A DNA stretch of 64,000 nt from Alphaproteobacteria bacterium (GTDB taxonomy: Bacteria; Pseudomonadota; Alphaproteobacteria; SP197): the NCBI GenBank assembly GCA_965228895.1, contig OZ245842.1, positions 5,216,001-5,280,000 of the forward strand, read 5' to 3'. This document shows positions 29,423 to 47,755 of the stretch, piece after piece (positions within the stretch are counted from its first letter, which is position 1; each line of letters begins with the position of its first letter). Under the pieces are notes generated by a model, which worked only from the letters and a program-made list of their open reading frames with translations, had not been told where the DNA came from and searched no databases. Made by a program: the position numbers and the translations under genes.

Positions 29423-29645
29423 ATCCGCCAGCTACTTCACCGTTGGAAAATCCGTCTCGTTTTCTAATGGACAGCCGCCGATGATCAGCGCAGCATCATA
29501 AAGCGGAGCCCCACAGGTGCGCGAACACCCGTGAGGCCCCTGACCACAACGACCTACTGCACAGGTGCGTCATGGCTGCAAAACCACATACCACAATAGA
29601 GAACTGTTGCACGCCTCCAGTGGGTCTCAACCACGGGAGAAAACA

Positions 29646-30636: not shown

Positions 30637-30640
30637 CGCG

Positions 30641-31663: not shown

Positions 31664-31677
31664 TACTCATTCCTTGT

Positions 31678-32295: not shown

Positions 32296-32473
32296 GGGCC
32301 ATCTTCCAGCGCCTGAGTTCGCCGTCGCTCATCATGCGGATCTTATCGTCGAAGGCCTTACGGGCTTCCTCCGTCTCGCCCTCGGCCTCCAACCGTTTCG
32401 AGGCGGCCTCATGCAGGCGTTTCACCTGTTCGACGGTGAGGTTGTCTGCGATGTCATCCGTGGTGACTGGCAT
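32282..32473 (-). CDS. 63-aa protein sharing the scaffold-like C-terminal motif
   Basis: RBS GGAGGAG; C-terminus KAFDDKIRMMSDGELRRWKMAHGGW. Confidence 0.7.
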   Translation of the reverse strand: MPVTTDDIADNLTVEQVKRLHEAASKRLEAEGETEEARKAFDDKIRMMSDGELRRWKMAHGGW

Positions 32474-32987
32474 TGTCCTTCTCCTCCAGTGTTTCAATTA
32501 GATTGATTGCGCGCTCGATTCCGTCGCGGCTTTGGAGCAACGGAGACTTGTGCTTTCTGAGTTCGCCGGTGGCCTCCGTCATCATGGCCTTGATCCGCGC
32601 TTCGAGCTGATCCAGTTCCCGGTGACGGTTCCGGACCTCGATCTCGCGCTGTTCCATGCTGTCTTCCTTGCGCGCCCACTTCGCCTCTAAATTGGCGATC
32701 CGCTTCTCGCGTCGCTCGTGGTCCTTCTGGCTCGCGGCAAGATACTCGCTCCACTTGCTCAGCTTTTTCTGCGCCCGTTCCAGTTCGCCCTCCGCCTTCG
32801 TAACGGCATCGCGGCGTTCGGTGAACTCCTTGAGCTTCTCCTCAAAAGCCTCGGGATCATTTACCGCGTGAACCAGCGCAATGGCGGCGGCCTCGTTGCC
32901 AGCCAGACCCGGCAGGTGGATGCTGTCGTGGTTCTCGCGTGGCTTGGGCTTCGGCACGTTGACTTGTTCGGGTTTCTCTTGCGTCAT
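32454..32987 (-). CDS. Coiled-coil hypothetical protein
   Basis: Charged heptad-rich 177 aa; ATGA overlap with the upstream gene. Confidence 0.75.
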   Translation of the reverse strand: MTQEKPEQVNVPKPKPRENHDSIHLPGLAGNEAAAIALVHAVNDPEAFEEKLKEFTERRDAVTKAEGELERAQKKLSKWSEYLAASQKDHERREKRIANLEAKWARKEDSMEQREIEVRNRHRELDQLEARIKAMMTEATGELRKHKSPLLQSRDGIERAINLIETLEEKDNASHHG

Positions 32988-35017
32988 TCATCCTCACCTT
33001 GTGCCGCCTGTAGTGCGGCGTCCAAACGTTGCTGCAAGAGTTGCGCGGAGCTGTTCCTGTCCACGTTCACGCCCATCTCGTTTTGCAGGATTTCCTTCAT
33101 CTGCTCGATGACGGGTGCGAGGTTCTGGTTCTGTGACGCGATGACGTTGAGCTGGGCCGCGTGGTTCGCCCACGACACGGTGCCGAAGCTCACGGTGGGT
33201 GCGTCCGCCATCCATCTGACAAGGCGCGGAGACATCAGTATCTTCGCTGCCAAGGTGGAGGCGGCGACAGTGCCGCCGACTGCCGCACCAGTCGCAACGG
33301 GAAGAACACCGGTCGAGAAGAAGTCCACCACCGCACCGGCACCGATAGCGCTGCCGATGAGGACGCGACCGGTACCGGAGTTGTTGTACATCCGCTCCGT
33401 TCGCCGAATGCTCGACAACACCTCGGCAAAGTTATCGAGCTCTTCTCTCAGGCCCGGTGTGGCCTCGAACAGGATGTCCTTGCCGCCATCGGAGAGGCGG
33501 TTGTAGTTGGTGAGAAAGCGGTTCATCGAGAAATCGACTTCCGCAATCTCACCGGCATTGCCTGCCAAAGGACGGCCCATTTCTCTGATGACGCTGGCGG
33601 CGACTTCGTTCCACGTCGCGTCGTCCATCGCGGAGCGGATCTCCTGAAGCTCCCTGAGAGACGCGCCCGCTCGTTCCCCGGCCCGTTTGACCAACAAGTC
33701 ATACGTGGCCTCTCCCGACGCATTGGGATCGAGCAGGCGGTTAAGTGCGTTCTGTATCTTCTCGGCACCAAGACGGTAGAACTCGTCGGCCCGATTGATG
33801 GCCTGCAACGCGTCCGGCCCCAACGTTTCGGCAAACGTCTTCATGTCATCGGTGATGGCACCGTAGAGCTCGCGGAGGGCCTGGGTGTCCAGGTCCGCGC
33901 CCAAGACAACTTGGGGCTTGGCAAGCAGGCGTCCGATTTCCGTTCGGAACGATCGCAGGTCTGAGTAGGTGAGCGCGCCGTCGTTGTTGCGGATGGCGTT
34001 GGCCCAGCGCTCGAAGCGCGGTGACACGAACGCATCACCCAACTCCGCCAGATCGAACTTCGCGGCAGATCCGGAGAGGGCATTGATGGTCTCCGTCATC
34101 TGCACCTGTGCGGTGGGTGAGAAGAGATCATCGACCCGCTGATAGAGCGCTCTTGCCTTGAGCGCGAAGCCTTCGCCCTCCGGCAGGCTCAGATTCCGCG
34201 TGGCTGTTCGGAAGATGTTGCTGATGGCCTCTTCGCTCAGGTCGCCCGCGACATTCACACTGCCACGGAACGCTTCCGCTCCGGCCTGGGCAGCTTCTCC
34301 GCCTGCCAAGCGGGACACCGACGTGCCGCCAGTGGACGCCGCAAGCTCTTCTGCCGCGTCTGCCGCACTCCCAGCCGTGCGCGCCATGCCGCGCTCGATG
34401 ACATTGCCTGCAACCGGCGTCTCGCGAAGGGTGGAGACGACACCACGAACGGTGCGGTTCTCCATGGCCGTCGCCAGCGTCGGCGTTACACCGGCCTGAC
34501 GGAAGCGGCCAACGGTTTGGCCGAGACGCGTAGCCTGGGCAGCGGGTTGGATGACGTTGCGCGACACCAGATTACCGAAACGCGGCACACCGCCCGGCAC
34601 ACTGCCGCCCATGGCTCCGAACGAAAGAACGCGTCCCAAGGCAAGCAAGCGTTCGTCGGTTTCTTCGGAGCGCAGGTACACCGTTCTCTGGCCGGTAGCC
34701 GGGTCGATCAGTTGGACGTGGATTTGTGGGTCGAAGTCAATCCAACTGCCGTCATCACGCAGGGCAATCGGCCCGAAGTCAGCCTCCAACCACTTGCCGA
34801 TGCGTTCGTAGTTGGGCTCGCCTTGAAGGTTGCGGACGATAGGCGAGGTGCCCTGGAATGCCGCCTCCAGTTCCGTCTGGAAACCCTCGGCAACGGCACC
34901 AGCGCCTGACACCTCACGTGTGTTCTCAGGGAACGTCGTCATGGGCTCCGGGATGGGCGGTGCTGTCTCACCGGCGGCACGGCGGACGTCGGCAAGCCTT
35001 TCTTCAAGAGAGGCCAT
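32984..35017 (-). CDS. Putative internal virion / DNA-ejection protein (large)
   Basis: 677 aa, Ala/Gly-rich and helical; LTYSDLRSFRTEIG, NNSGTGR then hydrophobic Gly/Ala segments and LMSPRLVRW, recalling P22-gp16-type transfer proteins. Confidence 0.6.
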   Translation of the reverse strand: MASLEERLADVRRAAGETAPPIPEPMTTFPENTREVSGAGAVAEGFQTELEAAFQGTSPIVRNLQGEPNYERIGKWLEADFGPIALRDDGSWIDFDPQIHVQLIDPATGQRTVYLRSEETDERLLALGRVLSFGAMGGSVPGGVPRFGNLVSRNVIQPAAQATRLGQTVGRFRQAGVTPTLATAMENRTVRGVVSTLRETPVAGNVIERGMARTAGSAADAAEELAASTGGTSVSRLAGGEAAQAGAEAFRGSVNVAGDLSEEAISNIFRTATRNLSLPEGEGFALKARALYQRVDDLFSPTAQVQMTETINALSGSAAKFDLAELGDAFVSPRFERWANAIRNNDGALTYSDLRSFRTEIGRLLAKPQVVLGADLDTQALRELYGAITDDMKTFAETLGPDALQAINRADEFYRLGAEKIQNALNRLLDPNASGEATYDLLVKRAGERAGASLRELQEIRSAMDDATWNEVAASVIREMGRPLAGNAGEIAEVDFSMNRFLTNYNRLSDGGKDILFEATPGLREELDNFAEVLSSIRRTERMYNNSGTGRVLIGSAIGAGAVVDFFSTGVLPVATGAAVGGTVAASTLAAKILMSPRLVRWMADAPTVSFGTVSWANHAAQLNVIASQNQNLAPVIEQMKEILQNEMGVNVDRNSSAQLLQQRLDAALQAAQGEDE

Positions 35018-36228
35018 CAGAACCCCCGCTTTTCGAGTTCAGCGTCGAGCTGTGCCTTCTCATCGGCAGAAAGCGTTGAGAGGTCGATGCTTCCAAGCTC
35101 GGCAAGGCTCATGCTTGAGAAGTCGATTGGCGTGGCTAACCCGCTCTCACGAATACGGCTTCTGACGACGTTGGCAGGTGACACACCGGCCTCGTTCGCG
35201 GCGGTCGTGAAGTGAGATTCAAGGCTGCGCTGGTCGATGAGGAACTGCTCGTAGGAAGCTTGCGCTGCTTGCACCATGGCTTCGCGCATGTCGTCGGGCA
35301 GGATCTCGCCGCTGTCCAAACGTTGCAGGGCCTGCACCAGTTGTGAGCCTAGCCCCATAGCCTGGCCCGTGGTGGCGAACTCACCCTCGGTAACGCGGCT
35401 GCCGGGGTCCAGGACTTTGAAGAACGAGAACGTCAGCGCGACATCGCTCAGGCCCGTCGCATCCCCCGCCAAGTCCTGCATGATGAAGAACTGGCGCTGC
35501 ACCTCTTCAAAGCCCACCGACTGACGGTCGAAGTCGTCACGCAGGTTGTTCTCGACGGTGAGAATCTGGCTCGGGTCCAAACCGCCTTCAGCCCCAGACA
35601 CCAGTGGACTTATCTGGCCCGTCGTCTGGTTCATCTGCACGACGCTACCGGGGGCGAATCCCGACGCTTGAACTTCAGCGGGCGTCAACAGCCTGAAGCT
35701 GTCTGGACGTTTCGGCAGGTCAAAGGCGGACTGTTGCGCCGTTGCCGGATCGATACCCTGCGCAATAAGGGCATCCTCTGTTGCGGCCTGTCCCGCGACA
35801 CTGGCCTCTGCGTCCAGAGTAGCCGTCTGAAGTGTCTCTTCCCGTTTGGTGGGTGTCGCGGCGAACTGCGAAAGAAACGTCTGGAACCGATTCGGCTGTC
35901 CAAGCTGGCCGTAGAGTGTCCCGATCTGAGCAAGCATGCCCCGGATCATGCCAGCGTGCCGGGCGGTAAACTCTGTGGTGTCACCGCCGAGATAACTGGA
36001 CTTCAGGTTAAGCAGCGTTTCCTGCAACGTCGCGATGGCGTTTTCGCCCTCCTGCTGCATCGCGAAAGCTTCTTCTCGTTTGAGCTTGCGCGCCTCCAAG
36101 TCAGCCTGGAACTGCTGCAATCCAAGCTGCTCCTCGGCAAGGCCGATGCGCTGCTCGTCGAGTGCAAGATTTCTGGCGGTCTGCTGCCCACGTGCAAAGC
36201 CGCCGAGTGTGATTCCTGTCAGTGCCAT
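35017..36228 (-). CDS. Putative internal virion / DNA-ejection protein (medium)
   Basis: 403 aa from MALTGITLGGFARG; Gln-rich coiled coil; SDVALTFSFFKVLDPGSRVTEGEF motif recalled from podophage virion proteins; TGATG-coupled to the next gene. Confidence 0.6.
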   Translation of the reverse strand: MALTGITLGGFARGQQTARNLALDEQRIGLAEEQLGLQQFQADLEARKLKREEAFAMQQEGENAIATLQETLLNLKSSYLGGDTTEFTARHAGMIRGMLAQIGTLYGQLGQPNRFQTFLSQFAATPTKREETLQTATLDAEASVAGQAATEDALIAQGIDPATAQQSAFDLPKRPDSFRLLTPAEVQASGFAPGSVVQMNQTTGQISPLVSGAEGGLDPSQILTVENNLRDDFDRQSVGFEEVQRQFFIMQDLAGDATGLSDVALTFSFFKVLDPGSRVTEGEFATTGQAMGLGSQLVQALQRLDSGEILPDDMREAMVQAAQASYEQFLIDQRSLESHFTTAANEAGVSPANVVRSRIRESGLATPIDFSSMSLAELGSIDLSTLSADEKAQLDAELEKRGF

Positions 36229-36443
36229 GTAAGGGCTCCCAGTTCGCGGAGTGTCTCCACCTGAACGCAAGCCAAGAACGTCGCGTTGGCGTCGTCCGTC
36301 ATTTCGCCGTCGTCGTCGAACCACTCCGGCTGCCACACCGCGAGGATGTCGGCTACGTCGTCTTGCAGGACGGGAGACTCACCAGCGCGGTAGCCAGCGG
36401 CGTGTGCTTCGATGATCGCCATGTCGCCAAGGCTAAGTCGCAT
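36219..36443 (-). CDS. Small acidic hypothetical protein (74 aa)
   Basis: GGAGG RBS; overlaps both neighbours. Confidence 0.6.
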   Translation of the reverse strand: MRLSLGDMAIIEAHAAGYRAGESPVLQDDVADILAVWQPEWFDDDGEMTDDANATFLACVQVETLRELGALTWH

Positions 36444-36684
36444 GAATGGCCTCCAACTCCTCGACGATGACGGTACGCTCCTCATGCGGTTGGCCGCTGT
36501 AATAAGCGTCCATCTCAGCACGCAGCTCGAAGGCCGGTTGATCCTGGCTGACCTTCAGGCCGCGCAAGTCAAGCCAGTCATAGAGCTGGCGGCGTCGCAG
36601 TGGGCGCTGTGCATTGCGGTAGCGGGCCAGGAGCTTGTAGTCCGCACCACCCGTGTCGGTCATCGTGACGCCGTCGCTATTCAT
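36433..36684 (-). CDS. Small paralog 3 of tandem triplet
   Basis: GGGAGG RBS; shared C-terminal motif D-x13-Y-x7-R-x2-[LI]V-x2-LEA. Confidence 0.75.
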   Translation of the reverse strand: MNSDGVTMTDTGGADYKLLARYRNAQRPLRRRQLYDWLDLRGLKVSQDQPAFELRAEMDAYYSGQPHEERTVIVEELEAIHAT

Positions 36685-36711
36685 TTCTCGTACCTCCCAT
36701 ACCGAGCGCCA

Positions 36712-37053
36712 TCAGTTGTCCTTGACGGCTTCGAGACGCTGGACGAGATCGACTCGCTCATTGTCCGAGGCGGTTCTGTACCAGTCGCGCAACAGCGCTT
36801 CCGTCACCGCCTTGGGCGTGTCTGTCGAGACATCACGCTCCTCGAAGACAGGGCCTCGAAGGCGGGGATTGTCGGGATCTTCGTGCTTCGCACGCTCAGC
36901 GTCGTCGCCGGTGAACTGTGCCAGCTTGACCGTCTCTTTCAGACCGAGCTGCGCGACGATATCGCTGACGAACTTCCTGCGTGTACCGGAGAGGGCTTCG
37001 TAGAATCTGGCGTCGAGTTTGTCGTTATTGCCGAGTGAGTTGATTTGAGCCAT
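36712..37053 (-). CDS. Small paralog 2 of tandem triplet
   Basis: GGAGG RBS; same C-terminal motif. Confidence 0.75.
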   Translation of the reverse strand: MAQINSLGNNDKLDARFYEALSGTRRKFVSDIVAQLGLKETVKLAQFTGDDAERAKHEDPDNPRLRGPVFEERDVSTDTPKAVTEALLRDWYRTASDNERVDLVQRLEAVKDN

Positions 37054-37312
37054 AGGCGTGAGCCTCCAGGGCGTTCACGATTAGCTCCCGTTTTTCGTTG
37101 TCGCCCGCTTGGTACAGGCTGTTGATTTTTTCGTTCATTTCGTCAGCCGTGGCATCGGGGTGGGCCTCCAGTTCAAGCTCCTTGCATACCCGGCGCTTGG
37201 GACCACGGCGAATGGCATCCAGCGCACGCTTGCGACGGCTATCAAGATGGCGCGCGTCAAAGGCGCTCTGCATCGCCGCTGCCTTTGCTTCTGTCGTCGG
37301 GATGGCCTTCAT
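37025..37312 (-). CDS. Small paralog 1 of tandem triplet (95 aa)
   Basis: GAGGA RBS before ATG 37312 (MKAIPTTEAK); same C-terminal motif. Confidence 0.72.
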   Translation of the reverse strand: MKAIPTTEAKAAAMQSAFDARHLDSRRKRALDAIRRGPKRRVCKELELEAHPDATADEMNEKINSLYQAGDNEKRELIVNALEAHAYGSNQLTRQ

Positions 37313-37317
37313 GTCCT

Positions 37318-37638
37318 CTAGTTCCCATTCGATGCGTCTGTCACAGCCGTGCCATCGGGCATCACACCCGTCACTTCCGACATCCGGCGCGCCATGTCGT
37401 TCAGCGCCGCCAACTGTGCCGCGCGTTTGGCCTCTTCCGCGTTCTCTCTCACGAACCGCGTCATCTCGATCATCCACCTCAGGCTGAAGTCGCCGATCAG
37501 CTTCTGAGCCTCGATGTCCGACTGCGGACCCAACTCCGTCTGCGATGTCCGCTCGTGCAGCATCTCCAGCCCCTCCGACAGCTCCAACAGCGTCGCCAGA
37601 TCGAACCTTGGGCGGTCTTCCGCTTCGGCTAGCGCCAT
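37318..37638 (-). CDS. Hypothetical helical protein (106 aa)
   Basis: GGAGG RBS; acidic amphipathic helices. Confidence 0.7.
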   Translation of the reverse strand: MALAEAEDRPRFDLATLLELSEGLEMLHERTSQTELGPQSDIEAQKLIGDFSLRWMIEMTRFVRENAEEAKRAAQLAALNDMARRMSEVTGVMPDGTAVTDASNGN

Positions 37639-37897
37639 CAGGTTCCTCCAAAAACCTCGTCAGTCTCTCGTTCAGGGCACCCGGCTCCGGCAACGGTGAC
37701 CGCCACCGCAGCCGATCCTGGAGGTGAAGGATGTACGCCCTCGTGCGCTTGTCCTTCAGCGCCTCCGTCGCACGTGTCGTCAACGAACCCCTTGCCATAT
37801 CCGCGACCGCCGCTGCACGAGCACCGTTGCCCAGGACGACAAATGCCTCGGCAAAACGCTTGCGCTTGCGTGTCACGCCAAATGGCCGGGCCTCCAT
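37638..37897 (-). pseudogene. Terminase small subunit-like HTH gene, frame-disturbed
   Basis: VTRKRKRFAEAFVVLGNGARAAAVA...RATEALKD...AYI resembles the TerS N-terminal HTH. The expected AGY motif is out of frame and the main frame lacks a stop at the next gene. Confidence 0.55.
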
Positions 37898-38292
37898 GCG
37901 AGTGCCTCAAAAAGCGTTGTTCTGGCGAAAAGACTACAACAGAAAAAACTATGCAACAAGCGGAAAAGTTCAGTTTTTTTGGGGGCAGAGTTTGGATTTC
38001 GGCTGGGTGTATGAGTGGCGACTACGGCGCGGGGCGAAGGGCATGGGGGTGGCCCGGCATGGGCCTCAAGCGCCAGACTCTGAGTAGCTATCAGGCGTTC
38101 TAGGCCACAGAAGCTAGAGTTTGTGCGGCTTTCGGGCTGTGCTGCTTGGCAACGGGTAACAGTCGGGTAACGGCGAGGGCAAAAAGACTTCCGAGCGTCG
38201 GAAACCTTTCCCGTTTGAAAACGGACACAAACAAGGCCGAACCACCATGCCATTAGCACGCCGTTAGGCCTTACCGTGACCTCACCGTCCCA

Positions 38293-38336
38293 TAGGAGAG
38301 CCTTAGGAGAACCTTGGTATAACCTTGGGGTACCCT
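38293..38336. repeat. Four imperfect tandem 11-mers
   Basis: TAGGAGAGCCT|TAGGAGAACCT|TGGTATAACCT|TGGGGTACCCT. Confidence 0.75.
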
Positions 38337-38342
38337 TATAGC

Positions 38343-38453
38343 CCGGACACGCCGGACAAACCCGGACATTGTCCGGACATGTCCGCAGACACCCAACCCG
38401 GACAGGACAGGACATATCCCTTAAGGGATGTCCGTGTCCGGTCCGGTGTCCGG
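38343..38453. repeat. Iteron cluster, putative replication origin
   Basis: CCGGACA at 38343, 38352, 38362, 38373, 38398; GGACA at 38405, 38410; inverted TGTCC copies; 14-bp palindrome ATCCCTTAAGGGAT at 38416-29. Lies downstream of the helicase gene. Confidence 0.75.
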
Positions 38454-38456
38454 ATG

Positions 38457-38651
38457 TTACCGTTGAAGACATGAAGTTGGTTTGGTTGCGGCCTCGCAGC
38501 GACGGCTGACAAGCTGCCCGGCCTCGTTCTCGGTCGTCGTGATGAACCACGCCCAGACGGTCCCGCAGTCCACGGTGTCGCTGCCCTTGTGTGCGGTGAG
38601 CCGCCAACCAGGCTCGGCAGGCATGAAGACGCTGTAGGTCTGTTGCTTCAC
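38457..38651 (-). CDS. Small hypothetical protein
   Basis: GTG start overlapping the helicase stop (GTGA); PAEPGW...VWAW. Confidence 0.45.
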   Translation of the reverse strand: MKQQTYSVFMPAEPGWRLTAHKGSDTVDCGTVWAWFITTTENEAGQLVSRRCEAATKPTSCLQR

Positions 38652-39712
38652 GCTACCCACACCCATTCATCCCAGACGCCGATCAGCCCACGCTCCTGCA
38701 AGCCCTCAGACGCACGCTTGAACGCCTTTGACCTGGTGTCGGCCTTGTCGCTCGTGGTCACGATTCCGAGGTCGCAGTAGCGCCGCCACAGCGCCACGCT
38801 TACTGCCTGTGTGTTTGGTGGGATGTGGTTGCTAGCTGGAGGCACCTTGCCGCTCTCATCGATGGCCTTCTGGAGCATCTTGAGTGCGTTCTGCTGCTGC
38901 GCAGGTGGCTTCTTGCTCGTCTGGCGTTTGGCGGGCTCATAATCGTCCACTGGATCAACGACGCATGACGTTATCTCGTCACCATCCACGTCCTCACCGA
39001 CGACAACCTGCCTGATGGCGCTGGCCCACTGCGTACCGTCCTCGGTATCACGCATGGCACGCACCTCCGCGATGGTTTGGTTCTGCTTGTCCTTCTGGAC
39101 GGCAATCTCAGCATCCAGAGCGCCCAGGAGCGACGTGTGACCACGGTAGCGGGTTTCATCGAGGCCGCAGTGGTGCACGACGACCGCAGTGCAGTTGAAC
39201 GCGTTTCTGATCATGTCCAGCGCACCGATGTAGGCCGTCATGTCCGTGTCGGAACTCTCGGATCCGGTGAACGTCCTGTTCAACGTATCGACGATGACGA
39301 GAACGGGCGGCTCGTCCATCTGCATGGCGATGCTGTTGATGAGCTCGTCTTTCTGGTGAACGAGTTCCAGGCGAACCGTAATGAGCTTCAGGGGCGTCTC
39401 CGCTGCACCCTCGGCCATCTTCTCCTGGCGAAAGGCTTCAACGCGCTTGGCGAGCCCGCCACCGCCTTCAGCGGCTATGTAAAGGACGGGTCCTTGCACG
39501 ACACGGCGGCCACGGTACTCCCAGCCCAGCGCGACATGCATGCAGAGGTCGAAGGCAAGGAAGGACTTCCCGGACTTCGGCGGTCCCCACCACACGACAA
39601 TACCGTTCTTCGGAACGATGCCCTTGACGATGTAGTCGCGCTCATCGGACAGACGTACGTCGTCGAAATTGACGATTGGGATGGTGGGCAAATCCACTTC
39701 TCGAAGAGTCAT
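38648..39712 (-). CDS. RepA/AAA_25 (RecA-fold, SF4-like) replicative helicase
   Basis: Walker A GPPKSGKS, LYIAAEG, Walker B VIVDT, VVHH, RGHTSL.GA.D. Confidence 0.9.
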   Translation of the reverse strand: MTLREVDLPTIPIVNFDDVRLSDERDYIVKGIVPKNGIVVWWGPPKSGKSFLAFDLCMHVALGWEYRGRRVVQGPVLYIAAEGGGGLAKRVEAFRQEKMAEGAAETPLKLITVRLELVHQKDELINSIAMQMDEPPVLVIVDTLNRTFTGSESSDTDMTAYIGALDMIRNAFNCTAVVVHHCGLDETRYRGHTSLLGALDAEIAVQKDKQNQTIAEVRAMRDTEDGTQWASAIRQVVVGEDVDGDEITSCVVDPVDDYEPAKRQTSKKPPAQQQNALKMLQKAIDESGKVPPASNHIPPNTQAVSVALWRRYCDLGIVTTSDKADTRSKAFKRASEGLQERGLIGVWDEWVWVA

Positions 39713-40209
39713 GCAGCCACCTTCATGGTGTCGTTGAACACCACCTTCGGCACGACGCCAGTCACGCCCTCAAACGCCCTACGTACCGCTCGACCATGCC
39801 CGAAGTGGTCGCACTCCAGCGTCAGGCGCGGCGTGCCACAGAACAGTTCCGCCAGCACCGTAATGTCGACGGCGCAGAGGTCGTCTGTGTTGCGCAGCCA
39901 TGCCGACACGTAGCGGTGCACGCGGACGGTGCCGTGCCTGAACATCGGATTGCCCAGCAGCCGCGCTTGGCCGGTCAGGAGGTGAACATCGGCCGGCCTG
40001 GCAGGGTCGAGGGCGATGCAGTCAACTAGTCGCCCGTCCCAGGGATCGAAGCATGGGACAACGAGGTGACGCTTGCCGTCGCAATCGTCGAGGGCGGCGA
40101 CATGGCCGTCGAGAAACGCGTCCCATAGGTCCAGTGACTTGATGAACGCCGCACCGTTATCGAAGGCCGTGTATTCCTTGGCTGCCAGGATGGAGTCGTG
40201 CGGGGTCAT
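39709..40209 (-). CDS. Hypothetical protein coupled to the helicase
   Basis: ATGA overlaps on both sides; 166 aa. Confidence 0.7.
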   Translation of the reverse strand: MTPHDSILAAKEYTAFDNGAAFIKSLDLWDAFLDGHVAALDDCDGKRHLVVPCFDPWDGRLVDCIALDPARPADVHLLTGQARLLGNPMFRHGTVRVHRYVSAWLRNTDDLCAVDITVLAELFCGTPRLTLECDHFGHGRAVRRAFEGVTGVVPKVVFNDTMKVAA

Positions 40210-41231
40210 GGCTGGGCCTCCATCCGCGACATGACGAAGCCGATATCTTCGAAGGCTTCGGCGAACGTGTGGGGACGACTACCCAAGTACGAAAACGCCT
40301 GTCCCTGTGTCGGAGATCCTGTATGGCCGTCACACCGCACAAATTTGATGCGCCCGCGGGTGAAGCAGATTGCTGATGCCTTTGATGCAATCCGGTGAAA
40401 CCACTCGGTGTCGGTGTAGTTGTGTGTCAACAGCACCGCCTCGGTCGTGTGCCCCGCCTCAAACTCGGCTATCAGTTTGTCGATGAACTGCACAATTGCT
40501 GGCTGAGCGTAGGGCGGATTAAGCCAGACTCGCCCGCGCCATGGTTCGTCCAGGCCGCTATGTTCAGCGGTGAAATAGTCGGTCGCCTTGACCGTCGCCT
40601 GCGCATCGGTGCTGGTCGCGGGATCGAGGTCGATTTCACCCAGAAAGTCACGAACGATCTCTATGTACTCGGCCGGTGTGTACCACTCCGTCTCGCCCGT
40701 GCCGAAGGCGCCGCGAACATGGGGTTCGTCGCGAAGGACGCGTTGAACCGTGCGCTGACTGAGGCCCGTCTCTTCGGCTATCTGGCGAGCAACGCCCGGC
40801 AGCTGCTGCGGCGACTTACTTTGCCCACGCGCATCGACACCTGGGTGCGACATTCTGTCGCGGCCAGCTTCGCGGCGTTTTTCGAGAAGCTCTGCATATC
40901 GTCGGATATGCCGGTCGCGTTCGTCCTTGGTCAAATCGACGCGGTGGAGATTTTCGGCCAACTCCCAGAGTTCGCGCTCGTCCTCATCGATGTCGAGAAA
41001 CCGGACGGGTACGAACTCCCATTCAAGCCTGCGACAAGCCTCTAGGCGATGGTGGCCTGCAACCAGACGTACACCGTCTTCAGCGAGACAAACATCAATG
41101 GGAGTTTGAAGACCAATATCGTCAATCGACTTTGCAATGGCACCGATACGGTCGGGACGAACGGCGCGATGACGGTCGCCAATCTTGATTGCGTCGAGAC
41201 GGATATCGGCGACGCCCTTTTCGATAATCAT
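40206..41231 (-). CDS. ParB/Srx-domain + phage-type DNA N6-adenine methyltransferase fusion
   Basis: IGLQTPI, LVAGHHRLEA, LAENLHR.DLT (ParB); HTH-like linker; EWYTP, DLDPAT, VWLNPPY (Dam-type MTase). Confidence 0.88.
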   Translation of the reverse strand: MIIEKGVADIRLDAIKIGDRHRAVRPDRIGAIAKSIDDIGLQTPIDVCLAEDGVRLVAGHHRLEACRRLEWEFVPVRFLDIDEDERELWELAENLHRVDLTKDERDRHIRRYAELLEKRREAGRDRMSHPGVDARGQSKSPQQLPGVARQIAEETGLSQRTVQRVLRDEPHVRGAFGTGETEWYTPAEYIEIVRDFLGEIDLDPATSTDAQATVKATDYFTAEHSGLDEPWRGRVWLNPPYAQPAIVQFIDKLIAEFEAGHTTEAVLLTHNYTDTEWFHRIASKASAICFTRGRIKFVRCDGHTGSPTQGQAFSYLGSRPHTFAEAFEDIGFVMSRMEAQP

Positions 41232-41416
41232 TACGCCGCCTCCTCGAAGAGAGACCGCGCGAGTTCATCGACTATCGGCCGAATGATGTCGCCGACATGT
41301 TGAAATGAGGTGAGAGGTTCGCTATCTTCAAAACGCTGTAGTTTGCTGTGCTGTACAAAACATTCTGAAGCCCCCGGTGCCTCACCTCGCCGGGGGTTTC
41401 GTGTATCTGGCTCCAT
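41231..41416 (-). CDS. Small hypothetical protein
   Basis: Fills the alpA-ParB gap with a TAATG overlap; C-terminal FQHVGDII..IV. Confidence 0.5.
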   Translation of the reverse strand: MEPDTRNPRRGEAPGASECFVQHSKLQRFEDSEPLTSFQHVGDIIRPIVDELARSLFEEAA

Positions 41417-41419
41417 GGA

Positions 41420-41620
41420 TCATGCTGCCTCGTCGCCGTCGCGTTCAGCGATACGGTCGGCGATCCACCGATCAACCTCGTCTTCGACAAAGCCGATCTT
41501 CGTTGGACTTAAGACAACTGGCTTGGGGAAGCGGCCTTGACGGACCAAGCGCATAATCGATTCCGGATGGTACCCACCCGAACGCTTCGCCGCTTCCTTC
41601 TTGGTTATGATGCACGACAT
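41420..41620 (-). CDS. alpA: AlpA family regulator / excisionase
   Basis: 66 aa; GRFPKPVVLS...GFVEDEVDRWI signature; GGAG RBS. Confidence 0.9.
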   Translation of the reverse strand: MSCIITKKEAAKRSGGYHPESIMRLVRQGRFPKPVVLSPTKIGFVEDEVDRWIADRIAERDGDEAA

Positions 41621-41718
41621 TGTTGAGGTATCTCCCAACAGGTTGAGGGAGACATCCAATTAGCGCCGTAGTCGGGCTCTGTCGTCGAGCTACCCCGGCA
41701 AGTTTTGCAGGGGGTTAA

Positions 41719-42393
41719 TCACGCGTTGTGTCTGCGCTGGTAGCGGTTGGCGATTTCATTGATCTGGTCTGAAATCTCTTGGCGACGTTCGGCAATCTGC
41801 TCCTCGCTGAACTTAGCCCGGATCTCTGGCAACAACAGTTGCGCTAGTTCACGGTTCAGGGGTGTGACTTGCTCAAAGTAGGACCAGTTGCGATCCGAGG
41901 TCTCAGTGCTCTGGTCGATATCCGTCTTTCCGACGGTGTCCTGAACGTGAAACGCTAACTCATCGTAGGCTCGCTTGCGGTCGTCGCCGCGGTAGTGGTC
42001 AACAACCACCTGGTAGCATGTGCGAGCAAGCTGGCTATCGGGTTCATTGAAGTTGAGCCGGAAGGTGTTGCGGGCGACGTTCTCTTTCGGCCACCGGCTC
42101 TCCAGGTCCGCTAGAATCTCTAAGGCGTGTCCAACGGCATAGGCTGCATCGGCGACCGGGTCGTGGATCTGATGAGTGAACCGCACGTTCCTACCGACTT
42201 CTGACAGTTTCGTTTGCGCTTTGGTAAGGCGCTTTCGCTCAGCTGCGAGATCACTGCGAATCTCACTCAGGCGTGGTGAACCCCCATCTGCCGATGACAC
42301 CTCTCGATACATGGCGACAGTCAGTTCGATTGATTTTCGGAACTCCGAAACATCGGCAGGCCCAAAGAGGTCGATAAGCTCGTCAACTGTCAT
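41719..42393 (-). CDS. Hypothetical protein downstream of integrase (224 aa)
   Basis: ATGA overlap with the integrase stop. Confidence 0.7.
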   Translation of the reverse strand: MTVDELIDLFGPADVSEFRKSIELTVAMYREVSSADGGSPRLSEIRSDLAAERKRLTKAQTKLSEVGRNVRFTHQIHDPVADAAYAVGHALEILADLESRWPKENVARNTFRLNFNEPDSQLARTCYQVVVDHYRGDDRKRAYDELAFHVQDTVGKTDIDQSTETSDRNWSYFEQVTPLNRELAQLLLPEIRAKFSEEQIAERRQEISDQINEIANRYQRRHNA

Positions 42394-43628
42394 GCCAGCA
42401 CGCTGACACCATCGCCGACAACGACACCTTCGACATGACCGGCCCAGCGTTCTATCCACTGGCGCTTGAGGTCCAAGCTGTAGCCATGGCTGTATGCGTC
42501 GGTCACGGAACCGGAACCGGCGTGGTTGAGAACAAGTCCGCGCTCGTACTCGGATGCGCCCTCGTTCTGCATCCAGGTGGTGATGGTGCGACGATGGTTG
42601 TGGGGTATCCAGTCCTCAACGCCACTAGCCTTCCGCACCTTGCGCATGAGGGGCGAGCTCGGGTGGATGGGCTTTTTCTTGTGGCGTCCGGGAAACACCA
42701 GTGGTTCGTCGCTATCCTTTTTGCGTAGGGTCTTGAGGACGCGTGCCGCAAGGGGAGGGATAGGGACGAGGTAGACGCGCTCTTTTGCTGTCAGCTTGGA
42801 CTTGGTGCGCTCGAAGGGGATGGTCCAAAGCGTAGGCTTGTCGGGGTCGTCCAGTTCATCCCAGCGCATGCCAGCGAGTTCTAGGCGACGCACACCTAGC
42901 AACGTCACCAGCTTCACGAACCCGCGCTCTTGGGCGTTGAGATCCTCTTGTGCTGTCCACAGCCGCTTGATCTCATCGTCGTCATAGACACGTTCCCGCG
43001 CCTTTTTGGGGATGGCGGGCCGCACGCTGTCCATGATGGGCGCATCGACGATTTCCCGCTCGTAGGCGTACCGCCAGAGCGTCCTGAGCCACGAAAGGGT
43101 GACGCGGGCCTTGCTGGCCTTCTCCTCGTCTATGTAGCCCTCGATCAGCTTGAAGGCGTCGCGCCGGGTGATGGAGTTCATGGGTTTGTCGCCCCACGGG
43201 ACCGTCTCCAGGATCCTCTGCGTCTCTTCCCAGGTTCGCTGACGACGCTTGGCGTGTTTCTCGATGAACTCCTCGACCACAGCCTCGTAGGTATTGCTGC
43301 GCGCTTCAGCGGCGGCCTCTCGTTCGCGTTTGACAGCGTCGCGAGGGTCTAGGCCCTGCTCGGCCTCCCTGGCGAACCCACGGGCCTTCTCGCGGGCCTC
43401 TGCGATCCCGATGGAGGGATAGGACCCAAAGGTCATCTTGTGCTGCCTGCCGTCGAGCCTGAAGAAGTAGACCCAGGATGTCTTGCGCGTGCCGATGCGA
43501 GCACATAACCCCTTCTCAACCTCGTCGAACTTATCAACGCGTCCGGTCTTCGGACGCTTGGCCTCCAGTATCTTCTGGGTCAGGACATAGCTCTTGGGCG
43601 CCTTGCGTTCGCTTTTCTGATTGCCCAT
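42390..43628 (-). CDS. int: Tyrosine recombinase/integrase with N-terminal arm-binding domain
   Basis: GLCARIG..SWVYFFR.DG....TFGSYP.IGIAEAR arm domain; catalytic R (GVRRLE), K (RTK), H-x-x-R (HNHRRT), H (LNH), Y (DAY). Adjacent to attR. Confidence 0.96.
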   Translation of the reverse strand: MGNQKSERKAPKSYVLTQKILEAKRPKTGRVDKFDEVEKGLCARIGTRKTSWVYFFRLDGRQHKMTFGSYPSIGIAEAREKARGFAREAEQGLDPRDAVKREREAAAEARSNTYEAVVEEFIEKHAKRRQRTWEETQRILETVPWGDKPMNSITRRDAFKLIEGYIDEEKASKARVTLSWLRTLWRYAYEREIVDAPIMDSVRPAIPKKARERVYDDDEIKRLWTAQEDLNAQERGFVKLVTLLGVRRLELAGMRWDELDDPDKPTLWTIPFERTKSKLTAKERVYLVPIPPLAARVLKTLRKKDSDEPLVFPGRHKKKPIHPSSPLMRKVRKASGVEDWIPHNHRRTITTWMQNEGASEYERGLVLNHAGSGSVTDAYSHGYSLDLKRQWIERWAGHVEGVVVGDGVSVLA

Positions 43629-43652
43629 CAGTCGCTCACCAAAATCGTGAAT

Positions 43653-43670
43653 GGGTAACAAACGGGTAAC
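43653..43670 (+). promoter_or_regulatory. Putative integrase arm-type sites (right)
   Basis: GGGTAAC x2 (43653-59, 43664-70) between the int start and attR. Confidence 0.65.
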
Positions 43671-43787
43671 AGAATGGTGGTGTAGGCCCGTTTTCGTATG
43701 CTGAGCTATGTTGATATAGGCAGTTGAAAAAGCAAGGTAATCTGGTGATGAGGCTGAGTTGGGTTGAGAATTGTTGAGGGCAAAAAG

Positions 43788-43836
43788 CTGATTCGTAATC
43801 AGTAGGTCGGGAGTTCGAATCTCCCCTTCGGCACCA
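43788..43836 (+). repeat. attR (49-bp duplicate of tRNA-Thr 3' part)
   Basis: Identical to 28226-28274. Confidence 0.97.
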
Positions 43837-44000
43837 CTCGTCGCCTTCATAGAAAGATGCTGTGTGCTGTGCCTCTTTCGTAACCGGCGCTGTGTTGCGC
43901 ATGTTGTCGAGACGCTGTTTGTGCCGGAGATGCGGGCGGTGATCGCCTATGAAATGACGATCGTGGCCACGCTCGGGGATACGGTGGGAACCGCTCCGCC

Positions 44001-44612
44001 ATGGTAACGGCCATCCTCGCAGCCATTGGCTTCTCGGCTCTTCTCGTAACCTTATCCTACGGCGTGCATCATCGGCTGCTCGGTCCCGGCCAGCGCATCC
44101 AGCCCTACGACCTCGCCTTGACAGTCACTGCTGTGTTCCTGCTGGCGATCCTTGGCGAATCCCTCATCAATCCGATCTACGAGTGGTCCGTGGGCCGGAA
44201 GCTGTGGGAGTACCGCATTCTTCCTCTGCATGATGGCAATGTGTCTGCGCTGGCGGTGCTGATTTGGTCCGCCTATGGCATTCATCTCTATTTCATCCAG
44301 CGAACTCTGGATCACCGTTTGCCGCCTCGCTTGCGCAACAGATACGGCAAGGCGTTGATTATCGGGCTGGAGGCACCTCTCGTCTGGGAGGTGAGCGGCA
44401 ACCTCTTCTTCCTGATCGCGGCCCAACAATACTATGCCTACTATAACCCGCCCGACATCTGGCATTTCACCTCTATCCAGGTTGTGCCGGTGTACATCGT
44501 TTGCATTCTTGTCGGCCTTCTTGTGCTGCAGTCGCTTCAGCGTTTGGGCCGTCATTGGGCGTTGCCGTCGGCGCTGCTCATTGCAGGTCTCGGGTACCTT
44601 ATCGCGAGCTGA
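44001..44612 (+). CDS. Multi-pass membrane hypothetical protein
   Basis: About 6 hydrophobic segments, with WEY and YYAYY loops. Confidence 0.75.
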   Translation: MVTAILAAIGFSALLVTLSYGVHHRLLGPGQRIQPYDLALTVTAVFLLAILGESLINPIYEWSVGRKLWEYRILPLHDGNVSALAVLIWSAYGIHLYFIQRTLDHRLPPRLRNRYGKALIIGLEAPLVWEVSGNLFFLIAAQQYYAYYNPPDIWHFTSIQVVPVYIVCILVGLLVLQSLQRLGRHWALPSALLIAGLGYLIAS

Positions 44613-44699
44613 CGTGGTGTGACGTCTGTCCGTTCGGAGGTCTGGCCACTACGTCGGTCGTTGGTTCCTTGGGCGTGGGGGCCGCCGTCTCTTTTTTGC

Positions 44700-45908
44700 T
44701 TACAGCGTTCTCAGATGATCGGGCAGTTCAAAGGCCCGCCCCTGATCGCTCGCGGACAAGGCGGCCAACCTGACCAGCAGGTGGCGCGCGACATACTCGC
44801 AAGCGTGCGGCAGTCGAGCCTGCCCCGCAATTGGTATGCGGTGTTGACGGTTAAGCAGATGGGCCAGCTGGAGCGGCAGTACGTTCCAAAGTCTGGTGAT
44901 CTTGCCGGCCTTGCCCATGCCCAGAAGCTCGCAGTCCTCAGCACCCATCAGGTCGAAGGTGATCTGTCGGGGAATGGAGCGCAGGTACCATGGCAACAGG
45001 CTTTCCGTGAACCGCAGCAGGGCTTGCTCCAACTGCTCGCCGTGCGCGGTCTGCGCGCGCTGTCGATCTTTCAGGAGCGCGAAGAGCGCGCCGGCCTGTT
45101 CGACATCGCGCGGCAGGAGATCGTCGTCCACACCGAGCAGGTGACCCACCACGCTCCAGGTGTGGACGTAGTCGTCCTGTTGTTCTTGGGATAGTTCGAC
45201 ACCAAGCTGGGTCAGACCGCGCACGATCACGTAGGAGAACGTCTGGAGTGTCAGGGCCATGACGCATTGGTTGATGGGACTGGTGTCGCCATAACGCCCG
45301 CCTGCCAAGCGTTGCGCTAGATGATGGCCGGGCTCGGCCTGCTCCGCGCCCTGTCTTGCACGGATCAGATGCCGGATCGCCGCGTGCATCAGCCTGATCT
45401 TGTGGATTCCCAGCACGCCCGACCGTTCAGGACCGGTCAAGCTACCTGGCGACATGACCAGAATGAGGAACTGGAGCGTTTCAACGATGCGGCGATGGGC
45501 ATCGTCCTCCAGCCGGTGAGTAACGCCCAGAATGGAGGCGATGTCGCGGCTGATGTAGCACTCAGGCAAGCTGGCGCCGGCCATGACCACGTAGGTGGTG
45601 AATTGGTGCTCCTGAAACACCGCGGCAGCGTCGTCAAGGCGTGCCTGGTCGGCCCACGCCGGCAGGCGTGCCGCGCGGGCATCCTCAAAATAGGCGTGCA
45701 GTTCGCTCAGCAGGGGTGTGGGAAGATCGCATGTGTTCACCGTCAGACGGGTGATGTCGCCATAGCCGGCGCATGTCTGCAGGATGTGGCTCACCGCGCG
45801 CAGACTGTGGGTCTCGAAAATGCGCGTGATCAAGGCATCGGCCATCGGGTCCACCGGCCAAGCCTGTTCCAGACGATCGAGTGTCTCGGTCGTCGGTAGG
45901 TGCTGCAT
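44700..45908 (-). CDS. Oxygenase MpaB / DUF2236 (Lcp-like) family protein
   Basis: DPMADA, RRIVETLQF, IRLMHAAIRH (heme His), PINQ, WSVVGHLLGV. Confidence 0.85.
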   Translation of the reverse strand: MQHLPTTETLDRLEQAWPVDPMADALITRIFETHSLRAVSHILQTCAGYGDITRLTVNTCDLPTPLLSELHAYFEDARAARLPAWADQARLDDAAAVFQEHQFTTYVVMAGASLPECYISRDIASILGVTHRLEDDAHRRIVETLQFLILVMSPGSLTGPERSGVLGIHKIRLMHAAIRHLIRARQGAEQAEPGHHLAQRLAGGRYGDTSPINQCVMALTLQTFSYVIVRGLTQLGVELSQEQQDDYVHTWSVVGHLLGVDDDLLPRDVEQAGALFALLKDRQRAQTAHGEQLEQALLRFTESLLPWYLRSIPRQITFDLMGAEDCELLGMGKAGKITRLWNVLPLQLAHLLNRQHRIPIAGQARLPHACEYVARHLLVRLAALSASDQGRAFELPDHLRTL

Positions 45909-46083
45909 TGTCGGCGAGAACCTTGGGCGTGTTTCCTACGTGCTCGCGAGGCGTGACGACCAACTCCACGAAACGCCGAGCCACAGGCGATGTCTCACAA
46001 GTGTCCGTCATGCTCAAGCCCCGCTTTGTCGTATCGACCGACGGCGGATGGGACCAAGATTGGCGGGCCACAGCCGCGACATC

Positions 46084-46187
46084 AGCTTCCGCGCCCATCA
46101 ACGCACGGGTTCGTCGACGTCGTTCGGCGATAGACCGATTGAATCTCAATCAATCGGTCGAGTGTTCGAATCGCCCCTTCGGCACCA
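46084..46187 (+). pseudogene. Diverged full-length tRNA-Thr copy with duplicated 5' leader (tRNA-like body 46113-46187, anticodon position CTC)
   Basis: 46084-46113 is identical to 28171-28200. The body aligns without gaps at 57/75 identity and keeps TTCGAAT and the CCA end. Confidence 0.85.
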
Positions 46188-46354
46188 GCGCCCCGGCGGT
46201 CGACCGGCTGCCAGCCGGCCTATCCCAACGTAGAGTTTGACCTATTCCAAAGAGTTAGCCCTTTCGGGAGTGGCGTGATCGCTGTCACAGGGGGTGAGAT
46301 TTACGGTGTCCGGGATTTGACGTAGTCTAAGAAAAATTTCCGGGATGAACAGCC

Positions 46355-46768
46355 ATGACAAATCAGTCAGCACCGGCGCAGCCGGTCAAGAAACCGGAGC
46401 GCAGTTCTACACCTTATCTTATCGGTATATTTGGTGCGGCCATGACAATCCTGATGGTTGTCATGATCGGTTCTATAAAAGACTTAAGGTCGGATCTCAC
46501 AGTCCTCGATACGTCGCTGGTTACTCTTCAAGAGGAGATCGTAGCCAACCGTATTGCTGTGGTGAGCGAGGTCGCCGGCATCGATGATGGTATAGCCAGT
46601 TCGATAGGCGACCTGCGGACGGACGTCGCGGTTACCAACCAGCAGCTTCTGGGCATTGACCTGCATCTGTCGGCCATGCGTCAGGAACTGGCGCCGGCGA
46701 CCGCCGAGTTCTCGCGTGACGTCGAGACGGTCGCGCCGGTCAACGATCGCAACACGCGCGACAAGTAG
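46355..46768 (+). CDS. Membrane-anchored coiled-coil hypothetical protein
   Basis: One TM (YLIGIFGAAMTILMVVMI) followed by heptads. Confidence 0.65.
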   Translation: MTNQSAPAQPVKKPERSSTPYLIGIFGAAMTILMVVMIGSIKDLRSDLTVLDTSLVTLQEEIVANRIAVVSEVAGIDDGIASSIGDLRTDVAVTNQQLLGIDLHLSAMRQELAPATAEFSRDVETVAPVNDRNTRDK

Positions 46769-46807
46769 ACTGAAGTTGAGACGCGCCTGAATCCGAGGCG
46801 CCGCGGG

Positions 46808-47755
46808 TCAGGTCGATGCAGAGGCGTCGCCCAAGACAGGGGCGGCTTCATCATAGGTCCGTTTGATACCCGCCTTCAGCGGGATCTGGGCCTGCCAGCC
46901 CAAGGCGCTCAGGCGTCCGACATCCAAGAGTTTCCGCGGCGTGCCATCCGGTTTGCCGCTGTCGTAAACAATTGTGCCCTCGAACCCCGCGATGTCGCCA
47001 ATCATCGCGGCCAGCTCGGCGATCGAGATATCCTTGCCGGTGCCGATGTTGATGATGTCCGGCTCGTCATAGGCCTGCATCAAGAAGAGGCAAGCGTCGG
47101 CCAGATCGTCGACATGGATGAACTCGCGCTGCGGCCGGCCCGTGCCCCACACCACGACCTCATCGTCGCCGCGCCGGACGGCTTCGTGGAACTTGCGGAT
47201 CAGGGCAGCCAGGACATGGCTGGTCTCCGGATCATAGTTGTCGCCCGGGCCGAACACGTTGGTCGGCTGGGTGCAGATGGCGTTGAAACCGTACTGCTGG
47301 CGATAGGCCTGACACATCTTGATGCCGGCAATCTTGGCGATGGCGTACCACTGGTTGGTCGGCTCCAAGGGGCCGGTCAGCAAATAGTCTTCCTTGATCG
47401 GCTGGGCGGCATCGCGCGGATAGATGCAGGATGAGCCTAGGAACAGCAGCTTCTCAGCCCCGCTGCGCCACGCCGCGTCGATGACGTTGGTCTGGATCGC
47501 CAGGTTGTCGCGGATGAAGTCGGCGGGATAGCTGTCGTTGGCCAGGATGCCGCCGACCTTGGCGGCGGCAAGGAACACGTGGCTCGGCCGCTCGGCCTCG
47601 AAAAAAGCCCGCACGGCCGCCTGGTCGGTCAGGTCGAGTTGACCGTGCGTCCGGGTGATCGGCGCGGCAAAACCTTCCGCCTGAAGGCGGCGAACGATCG
47701 CCTGGCCGACCATGCCGCGATGGCCGGCGACATAGATCCTGGCGTCCTTATCCAT
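46808..47755 (-). CDS. fcl: GDP-L-fucose synthase
   Basis: [38 protein letters not shown]. Confidence 0.95.

Follow-up and report, generated by a model that had tools for sequence, protein, structure and literature searches.

Two tRNA-like sequences on the forward strand of the 64,000-nt stretch analyzed here (referred to as the window) share an identical leader, and the second of them carries a different anticodon and a perfect stem. This raises the question whether the second sequence (46084-46187) is a functional or remodelled element or whether it is what an older insertion left behind. The window lies within the complete, 5.53-Mb genome of the source organism (G000). The base for comparison consisted of two congeners (G001 and G002) and the partial view of one further strain (X2). 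Additionally, four runs were used (including X1, X2, X3 and X7) in the form of contigs, which show presence and joins only. From these data we consider it likely that 46084-46187 is a non-functional relic of the adjacent tRNA-Thr(CGT) gene and its upstream region.

In total, four tRNA-like genes were called by ARAGORN in the window (1079-1169, 28200-28274, 43763-43836 and 46113-46187). The first call, a 91-nt 'Phe', is doubtful. The second, on the + strand, is the live tRNA-Thr(CGT) gene, which folded into a cloverleaf and scored 79.2 bits with the Rfam tRNA model (RF00005). According to ARAGORN it is the sole functional CGT copy genome-wide, and its sequence is the same in the three species G000, G001 and G002. 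To its left a TPP-enzyme gene, identified by Pfam, is located on the - strand (26378-28147). The upstream region and leader of the live gene (28146-28199, + strand) contain a putative -35 (TTGACG) and a putative -10 (TAGCTT) and form the start of a 129-nt repeat, D1.

Directly behind the live gene a phage-related integrative element of approximately 15.5 kb was found, here named island 1 (28275-43787). It was delimited by GC content (0.55-0.65 vs 0.63-0.68 in the flanks), by Pfam and PHROGs matches and by its absence in relatives, as it is missing from G001 and G002 and the X2 contigs had no coverage of it. Its cargo includes a SocA/Panacea protein, an AAA_25 primase/helicase-like protein and a ParB-N/Dam methyltransferase fusion (Pfam, PHROGs), and a tyrosine integrase gene lies at 42390-43850 on the - strand (Pfam, PHROGs). 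The island is bordered by an exact 49-nt direct repeat, D2. The attL-side core (28226-28274, + strand) begins at tRNA position 27 in the anticodon stem, where the initial annotation had placed the start of the att core, and ends at the 3' end of the tRNA. The attR (43788-43836, + strand) is a displaced 3' fragment of the tRNA and 49/49 identical to the core. ARAGORN called 'Thr(CGT)' here at 43763-43836. With Rfam, a marginal 'tRNA' extending attR and missing the D arm was obtained at 43773-43833 (29.3 bits, gathering score 29). The live tRNA, island 1 and the displaced 3' fragment together are the textbook signature of a tRNA-integrated island.

Island 1 is followed by an old islet of 2.2 kb without an integrase (43837-46058; Pfam, PHROGs). 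It carries a 203-aa membrane ORF (44001-44612, + strand) and an ORF for an MpaB/Lcp-like oxygenase (44700-45908, - strand), both assigned by Pfam. Next to the islet the second tRNA-like copy, here named pseudo-copy, is located on the same strand as the live gene and 17,913 nt downstream of it. It comprises a decayed homologue of the upstream region (46059-46083, + strand, part of D1), in which TTGGCG stands for TTGACG and CAGCTT for TAGCTT, the 30-bp block identical to the live leader (46084-46113, + strand) and the tRNA-like body (46113-46187, + strand). The pseudo-copy sits in a 447-bp spacer between two divergently oriented genes. The right flank (46188-46768, + strand) was conserved in the genome comparison and consists of spacer, the 5' region (46240-46354) of a 137-aa ORF and the ORF itself (46355-46768). 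This ORF is genus-specific, belongs to no family and is followed by genes for a GDP-mannose dehydratase and an epimerase.

Comparison of both copies in register (offset 17913) confirmed the 30/30 identity between 46084-46113 and 28171-28200 that had been described initially. The 75-nt bodies (28200-28274 and 46113-46187) were identical at 57 of 75 positions. As claimed, the 18 substitutions were not accompanied by indels, and ten of them were transitions. With the 49-bp core of island 1 the pseudo-copy agrees at 40/49 positions. Homology reaches further to the left than the earlier description had it, with 17/30 identity at 28141-28170. In the 41 nt upstream of this segment 15/41 positions were identical in register, which is near chance. 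The repeat finder reported the pair as the 129-nt repeat D1 with 78% identity. The base change from TAGCTT to CAGCTT (T in the live gene, C in the pseudo-copy) is present as described, whereas the label '-10 element' for this hexamer stays putative. A sigma-70 consensus scan returned no promoter at the pseudo-copy or at the live gene and is uninformative for this organism.

The structural claims made for the body could be reproduced as well. A perfect 10-bp inverted repeat with a 7-nt loop spans tRNA positions 21-47 (46133-46159, + strand), with CTC at the anticodon position. The compensatory change reported for the anticodon stem corresponds to the pair C27-G41, which is T27-A41 in the pseudo-copy. 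Three non-standard pairs were marked by the Rfam tRNA model. They affect the acceptor, D and T stems once each, where one mismatch per stem had been noted. In the D loop, positions t14, t16 and t18 are changed, in line with the reported loss of D-loop bases.

The sequence 46113-46187 is a tRNA-Thr(CGT) pseudogene, since its stems are damaged, it does not form a cloverleaf, its best match is tRNA-Thr(CGT) and intact Glu and Thr genes are present elsewhere in the genome. With RF00005 it reached 33.2 bits, marginally above the gathering score of 29. Neither the minimum-energy nor the centroid fold was a cloverleaf, the minimum-energy fold being a rod with the hairpin, and only one of the four stems is free of non-standard pairs. 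Among the 49 tRNA calls of the genome the best match of the body was tRNA-Thr(CGT) with 57/75. These calls include a normal tRNA-Glu(CTC) as well as tRNA-Glu(TTC) and tRNA-Thr with the anticodons GGT, TGT and CGT. The CTC 'anticodon' results from two substitutions within a decaying loop, t34 G>T and t35 T>C. An origin from a tRNA-Glu gene was considered and rejected on the basis of the best match, with which leader and position agree.

In its marginal score with the tRNA model, its broken stems and its altered anticodon the pseudo-copy resembles tRNA pseudogenes, and like these it duplicates what intact genes provide and lacks conservation in a congener. Unlike them, its decay is uneven (0/30 changes in the leader vs 18/75 in the body), and five of its changes build a perfect stem.

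To place the locus among its relatives, 40 related genomes were searched for the leader, and only the two congeners G001 and G002 carry it. A degenerate leader pattern gave one match in genome_contigs (L029), 0 in metagenome_contigs and 0 in viral_contigs. The 49-nt att core likewise had 0 matches in viral_contigs. The 137-aa protein of the right flank was found in 3 of 33 genomes of the family, all of the window's own genus, and the 109 pattern matches obtained for it in metagenome_contigs yielded 0 confirmed loci.

From 40 nt upstream of the live tRNA to the tRNA end G000, G001 and G002 are identical. In G002 the live tRNA is directly followed by a homologue of the islet and then by a syntenic pseudo-copy. 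The islet homologue is 71-77% identical to the islet of G000 vs approximately 86% for the flanks. The G002 pseudo-copy differs from the live sequence at 17/75 positions of the body and 9/30 positions of the leader. It retained CGT, not CTC, gave no ARAGORN call and had no Rfam match at E≤1. Its fold was no better than that of shuffled sequences (z = -0.7), while for the pseudo-copy of G000 z = -2.7 was obtained. Three changes are common to both pseudo-copies (t31 T>A, t41 G>A and t51 A>T) vs 1.4 expected by chance. As this is not significantly above chance, the orthology of the two copies rests on their synteny.

Between G000 and G002 the identity was 65% for the pseudo-body, 69% for the leader, 51% for the left spacer and 69% for the right spacer. 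For the 5' region of the 137-aa ORF it was 91%, and for the flanking genes approximately 86%. Because the pseudo-body is 65% identical, like the nearby spacer, no selection was seen on the pseudo-copy, which, judged from these alignments, evolves like spacer DNA.

The islet is absent from G001. Here a different insert of 2.85 kb is present, and only a 27-nt 3' stub is found before the conserved right flank. Two ORFs of this insert were searched: one gave a weak match to an inositol-phosphatase family just below the Pfam cut-off, the other matched no family. The stub has a T arm of the live type with two changes at its extreme end and would be the product of a later insertion followed by a deletion between repeats. 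G001 and G002 share 89-90% identity, slightly more than the 86-89% that either shares with G000. Since the full-length copy is shared by G000 and G002, it was probably ancestral to all three genomes.

The X2 strain, approximately 97.7% identical to the window in the flanks, has the pseudo-copy; island 1 and the islet are missing in it at 85% identity or better. Its 22.7-kb contig is colinear with the window rightwards from exactly 46084. To the left of this point it carries 7760 other letters up to a 57-nt piece of the 3' half of the tRNA (2 differences). Over 46084-47500 the contig showed 33 differences, and the 30 that are listed all lie at or beyond 46298, which leaves at most 3 for the pseudo-copy. 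Among the four genomes or strains compared, the slot between live tRNA and pseudo-copy thus has at least four contents, with nothing but the islet in G002, the other 2.85 kb in G001 and the 7760 other letters in X2. This intervening DNA, different in each of the four, and the position of the pseudo-copy at the distal edge of the tRNA-Thr island array, in the orientation of the live gene, support the initial suggestion that the copy is the scar of an older insertion.

The perfect hairpin builds on a latent palindrome of the tRNA, as positions 21-30 and 38-47 of the live gene already pair at 8/10. The 3' arm of the pseudo-copy has two changes (t41 G>A and t43 A>C). Three changes within 5 nt are found in the 5' arm (t23 G>C, t25 A>G and t27 C>T), and each of them restores complementarity, leading to 10/10. 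The change t41 G>A, which belongs to the donor arm, is common to G002 and is therefore older, the order being read from one outgroup copy, G002. When random decay of the live tRNA was simulated, each time with 18 substitutions, 16 of 30,000 trials ended with a perfect stem at least 10 bp long. This test, like those of the leader given below, was post hoc and was chosen once the pattern had been seen.

The changes are clustered in one arm and each is the reverse complement of the other arm, a pattern characteristic of template switching. Template switching is reported to create perfect stems and multi-base compensatory changes in one event, without selection (PMC8794818). Compared with quasi-palindrome mutations of this kind, the pseudo-copy is similar in that an imperfect 8/10 repeat was perfected by a tight cluster in one arm, with a result resembling multi-base compensatory evolution. 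It differs in that the event is reconstructed from one outgroup copy and the parent gene, and in that it concerns a pseudogene and not a selected RNA. The hairpin may have arisen from one template switch on the latent palindrome, an origin to which we attach slightly less than even confidence. Stepwise selection for pairing would be expected to lead to the same end state.

Such selection, acting in this species only, would have to preserve the leader and perfect the stem if the pseudo-copy were a functional element derived from the tRNA. Candidates would be a protein-binding palindrome, a small hairpin RNA or a portion of the divergent promoter region of the MpaB-like gene. We regard this as improbable. 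That five of the 18 substitutions perfect a single stem, which random decay rarely achieves, speaks in its favor, as do the intact leader, the location in the spacer between divergent genes and the fold z-score of -2.7. However, stem, leader and fold are all unconserved in the syntenic copy of G002, and the divergence of the pseudo-body is that of spacer. The first base of the putative -10 and one base of the -35 are changed, and no consensus promoter or terminator was recognized, in a scan that was blank at the live gene too. No T-run follows the hairpin. The hairpin and its 21-nt core are unique in the genome, so that hairpin and arms form no family of repeated motifs. The 10-nt arms occur 7 and 11 times and, among the listed positions, are placed together only at the hairpin. 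In the genome as a whole 474 perfect hairpins with a stem of at least 10 bp and a loop of 3-9 nt were counted (approximately 86 per Mb). Apart from tRNA no Rfam family matched the pseudo-copy. Since neither a terminator nor a repeated motif, another Rfam family or a counterpart in G002 was found, selection for the hairpin is unsupported.

Two readings offered by the initial annotation, a tRNA-derived ncRNA and a remodelled or decoy integration site, found no support. Against both, the syntenic G002 copy lacks the hairpin and a conserved leader and cannot be recognized as a tRNA, the body diverges like spacer and the hairpin sequence is unique in the genome. The contigs of the RNA run (X7) were confined to 46347-46674 and to tRNA-like pieces near 28207-28261 and are uninformative on transcription of the pseudo-copy.

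The second peculiarity is the leader block. That a conserved leader beside a diverged body reverses normal decay, as stated initially, is true for G000; the leader of G002 decays ordinarily. The difference between the G000 leader and its own body (0/30 vs 18/75) is significant by Fisher's test (p = 0.0014), as is that between the pseudo-leaders of G000 and G002 (0/30 vs 9/30, p = 0.0019). A run of at least 30 identical positions had a permutation p of 0.004 over 134 nt and of 0.02 over 104 nt. The 30-bp block is present at only two places in the genome, the live gene and the pseudo-copy. The identity run is therefore unusually long for the overall divergence and lineage-specific, as is typical of a gene-conversion tract.

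Gene conversion, or concerted evolution, occurs between duplicated RNA genes. As the identical leader is lineage-specific, it points to a recombination patch rather than to conserved function. The leader of G002 is decayed and the G000 DNA on either side of the block is old, aligning with G002; on these grounds the block is best read as a conversion-type patch by which the live gene restored the leader in the G000 lineage, a reading about which we are evenly divided. With known cases of gene conversion it shares a patch of perfect identity between diverged paralogues on one chromosome and in one lineage. Unlike these, it is confined to a very small tract of at most 30 bp with a mismatch on either side, which lies in the leader and not in the gene, and its mechanism is deduced from the pattern.

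A tract of 30 bp is short for copies that are approximately 76% identical and whose flanks have little perfect homology. The conversion would have to stem from a period of greater similarity between the copies and still be so recent that 0/30 changes have accumulated since. Both edges of the patch fall on functional landmarks, namely the putative -10 and base 1 of the tRNA. The breakpoint of X2 coincides with the left edge of the block, and a recombination endpoint has thus been located here at least once. Together, the edges at landmarks and this breakpoint could instead indicate a site-specific or selected feature.

It has also to be considered whether the pseudo-copy, and in particular its leader block, is a live recombination site. 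Island cargo would be exchanged at this secondary docking site by homologous recombination or by an integrase working at the 5' leader, and the block would stay identical because it recombines repeatedly with the live locus. The X2 contig fits such a site, since its colinearity starts exactly where the block begins on the left and is preceded by 7760 other letters. So do the interval between live tRNA and pseudo-copy, which differs in four of four genomes or strains, and the statistically unusual identity of the leader. The G001 stub with its live-type T arm also fits, as it suggests that the older relic was rebuilt by recombination at least once. However, the interval contains a single integrase, the exact 49-bp repeats belonging to it cover the tRNA from the anticodon to the 3' end and not the leader, and the islets of G000 and G002 carry no integrase. 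The pseudo-leader of G002 has decayed (9/30), and the searches of viral and metagenome contigs with the leader pattern revealed no candidate attP. We judge a live site to be very unlikely and retain the conversion-type patch as the reading of the block. If the live site were true, it would be a new sublocation for tDNA-associated recombination at the 5' leader, outside the sublocations described for tDNA-targeting integrases, with the dead tRNA copy as a harmless place to land and cargo being swapped there between strains.

A working tRNA whose identity was switched to Glu(CTC), as the ARAGORN call tRNA-Glu(CTC) and an Rfam score just over the gathering score would have it, has next to no probability in view of the non-standard pairs found in three stems (acceptor, D and T), the altered D loop, the missing cloverleaf, the normal tRNA-Glu(CTC) elsewhere in the genome and the syntenic G002 copy, which has CGT and is undetectable as a tRNA.

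A 30-bp exact repeat beside diverged sequence is also a join that an assembler could make, and the initial annotation had raised the worry of a misassembly. X1 contained the whole stretch with 0 differences, and one of its de Bruijn contigs, 17,088 nt long, covers 43807-47500. Its contigs break at the 49-bp repeats (28244/28245 and 43807-43817) and at 31139-31524 within island 1, and none breaks at the pseudo-copy. In X3, a separate metagenome run from another study, two contigs cover 45943-46399 with 0 differences at depth 2. As these independent contigs span the locus with 0 differences, an assembly chimera or polishing artefact that joined the live leader to unrelated sequence is contradicted as far as contigs show, and with the X2 contig covering the same region from 46084 on at approximately 97.7% identity and the same architecture in G002 we give it hardly any credence.

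Taken together, the observed architecture and synteny of the locus, the decay of the pseudo-copy and its lack of conservation are best explained if this tRNA is a hot spot at which integration recurs and the pseudo-copy delimits an old insertion on its distal, attR-like side. When the species of this genus separated, or earlier, an insertion at the tRNA would have duplicated approximately 129 nt including the upstream region, the leader and the whole tRNA. The likely vehicle would be an element whose attP carried a long homologue of the tRNA locus, and the 2.2-kb islet would be its remnant. This attP origin is a conjecture, as the copy is full-length with approximately 55 nt of upstream sequence and the islet has no integrase; a local duplication followed by an insertion would give the same picture. 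The left copy would have been kept under selection, and the right copy, being redundant, would have decayed at the rate of spacer and separately in each lineage. Two further events can be proposed for the G000 lineage. A short patch of recombination or gene conversion from the live gene may have reset the 30-bp leader. In one template switch during replication the 3' arm may have been copied onto the 5' arm, by which three mismatches would have been fixed at once, resulting in the perfect 10-bp hairpin and the apparent compensatory change. Later, the 15.5-kb integrase island presumably entered the live tRNA via the 49-bp core reaching from the anticodon to the 3' end and pushed the relic 17.9 kb away.

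Some integrative elements possess an attP that shares long homology with the tRNA locus, for example phage HP1 of Haemophilus. An attP of this type would explain why the duplication extends beyond a 3' fragment. In contrast to HP1, no element with such an attP was found here, with 0 matches to the leader or the 49-mer in viral contigs.

The closest known kind is the displaced tDNA fragment at the outer end of a tandem island array. The Islander description gives a displaced 3' fragment of the tDNA together with a regenerated gene as the signature of a tRNA-integrated island, and the anticodon region as the commoner sublocation of the core, with 2083 of 3919 islands (PMC4383910). The locus agrees with this description in that a tRNA is followed by a copy in the same orientation, with foreign and strain-variable DNA in between. 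The intervening DNA is indeed of lower GC, and its content differs in G001, G002 and X2. The array also includes a second, younger island, which has an integrase and an exact 49-bp fragment of its own, and the core of island 1 starts in the anticodon region.

Unlike the fragments described there, the outer copy is not a 3' fragment but the whole gene with approximately 55 nt of upstream sequence (129 nt at 78% identity), and apart from 30 bp outside the tRNA its sequence has decayed heavily. The repeat at 43788-43836, by comparison, is a proper end fragment. The islet (43837-46058) encodes the membrane ORF and the MpaB-like ORF only, its G002 homologue likewise has no integrase of its own, and the integrase filter of Islander would reject it (PMC4383910). 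The pseudo-copy is thus filed as a tRNA pseudogene that behaves as an old att-side duplicate and probably is one by origin, and not as a certified attR.

The locus is mainly of value as a worked example that calls for caution. A tRNA-like call that combines an altered anticodon, a perfected stem and what looks like a compensatory change resembles evidence of selection. In this case the syntenic copy of a sister species shows plain neutral decay, and both odd features have neutral mutational explanations, namely a recombination patch and a template switch. The pseudo-copy is a further instance of an already known kind, and its two curiosities, for which neutral mechanisms are plausible, more likely reflect recombination and replication slips than a new function. 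For annotation, 46113-46187 should be labelled as a pseudogene and not as tRNA-Glu. Additionally, the locus documents a busy integration hot spot at tRNA-Thr(CGT) in a poorly sampled marine alphaproteobacterial genus.

Three overlapping ORFs at the locus (45685-46149 on the - strand, 45784-46233 and 45881-46240 on the + strand) were rejected as spurious, and one of them was tested and gave no Pfam match. The alignment of the G000 and G002 spacers contains gaps of 6, 4 and 2 nt, which bear on the coding constraint of these ORFs.

In the congener G001 the sole tRNA remnant in front of the conserved right flank was a 27-nt 3' stub (5862-5889 of its locus record, L028). The T arm of this stub was of the live type and two changes were found at its 3' end, which suggests that the older tRNA relic had been rebuilt in this species through an insertion and a deletion that came later.

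The live tRNA-Thr(CGT) had a leader that was identical across the three species representatives. The contigs of the related strain X2 carried an A>G exchange within this leader (window position 28187), so the leader sequence does vary within the species. At the left of the window, ARAGORN called a tRNA-Phe(GAA) of 91 nt (1079-1169). This stretch had no match in Rfam at the gathering threshold and resembled ordinary GC-rich coding DNA; a normal tRNA-Phe was present at another place in the genome. The call is probably a false positive.

The right flank carried a genus-specific ORF of 137 aa (46355-46768) without any family in Pfam. It was present in three of 33 genomes of the family, all belonging to the window's own genus, and identities among these three species ranged from 82 to 84%. 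Residues ~20-40 formed a hydrophobic stretch. The 115 nt located 5' of this ORF (46240-46354) shared 91% identity between the window's own genome (G000) and the second congener, G002, compared to 51-69% in the adjoining spacer. No match to this block was found in Rfam. The block probably represents a promoter or 5' leader that has been conserved.

Within the islet next to island 1, the MpaB-like ORF comprised 402 aa in G000 and 431 aa in G002. Since the latter is 29 aa longer, the start or the frame of the G000 ORF may have been misjudged. A block of ~80% conservation was located 5' of the listed start (window 45973-46022, and ~8360-8400 of locus record L027).

The integrase ORF of island 1 was listed with 486 aa (42390-43850) and as such crosses the attR repeat of the island. 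The matches to Pfam and PHROG started only at residue 87-90, from which we infer a true start that probably lies inside the listed ORF, near position 43600. At 40206-41231, island 1 encoded a ParB N-terminal domain fused to a Dam-type N6-adenine methyltransferase. At the left end of the island, a gene for a SocA/Panacea-domain protein of 189 aa was followed after a gap of 4 nt by an ORF of 116 aa, which was assigned to no family (28498-29422). The two could represent a candidate toxin-antitoxin pair.
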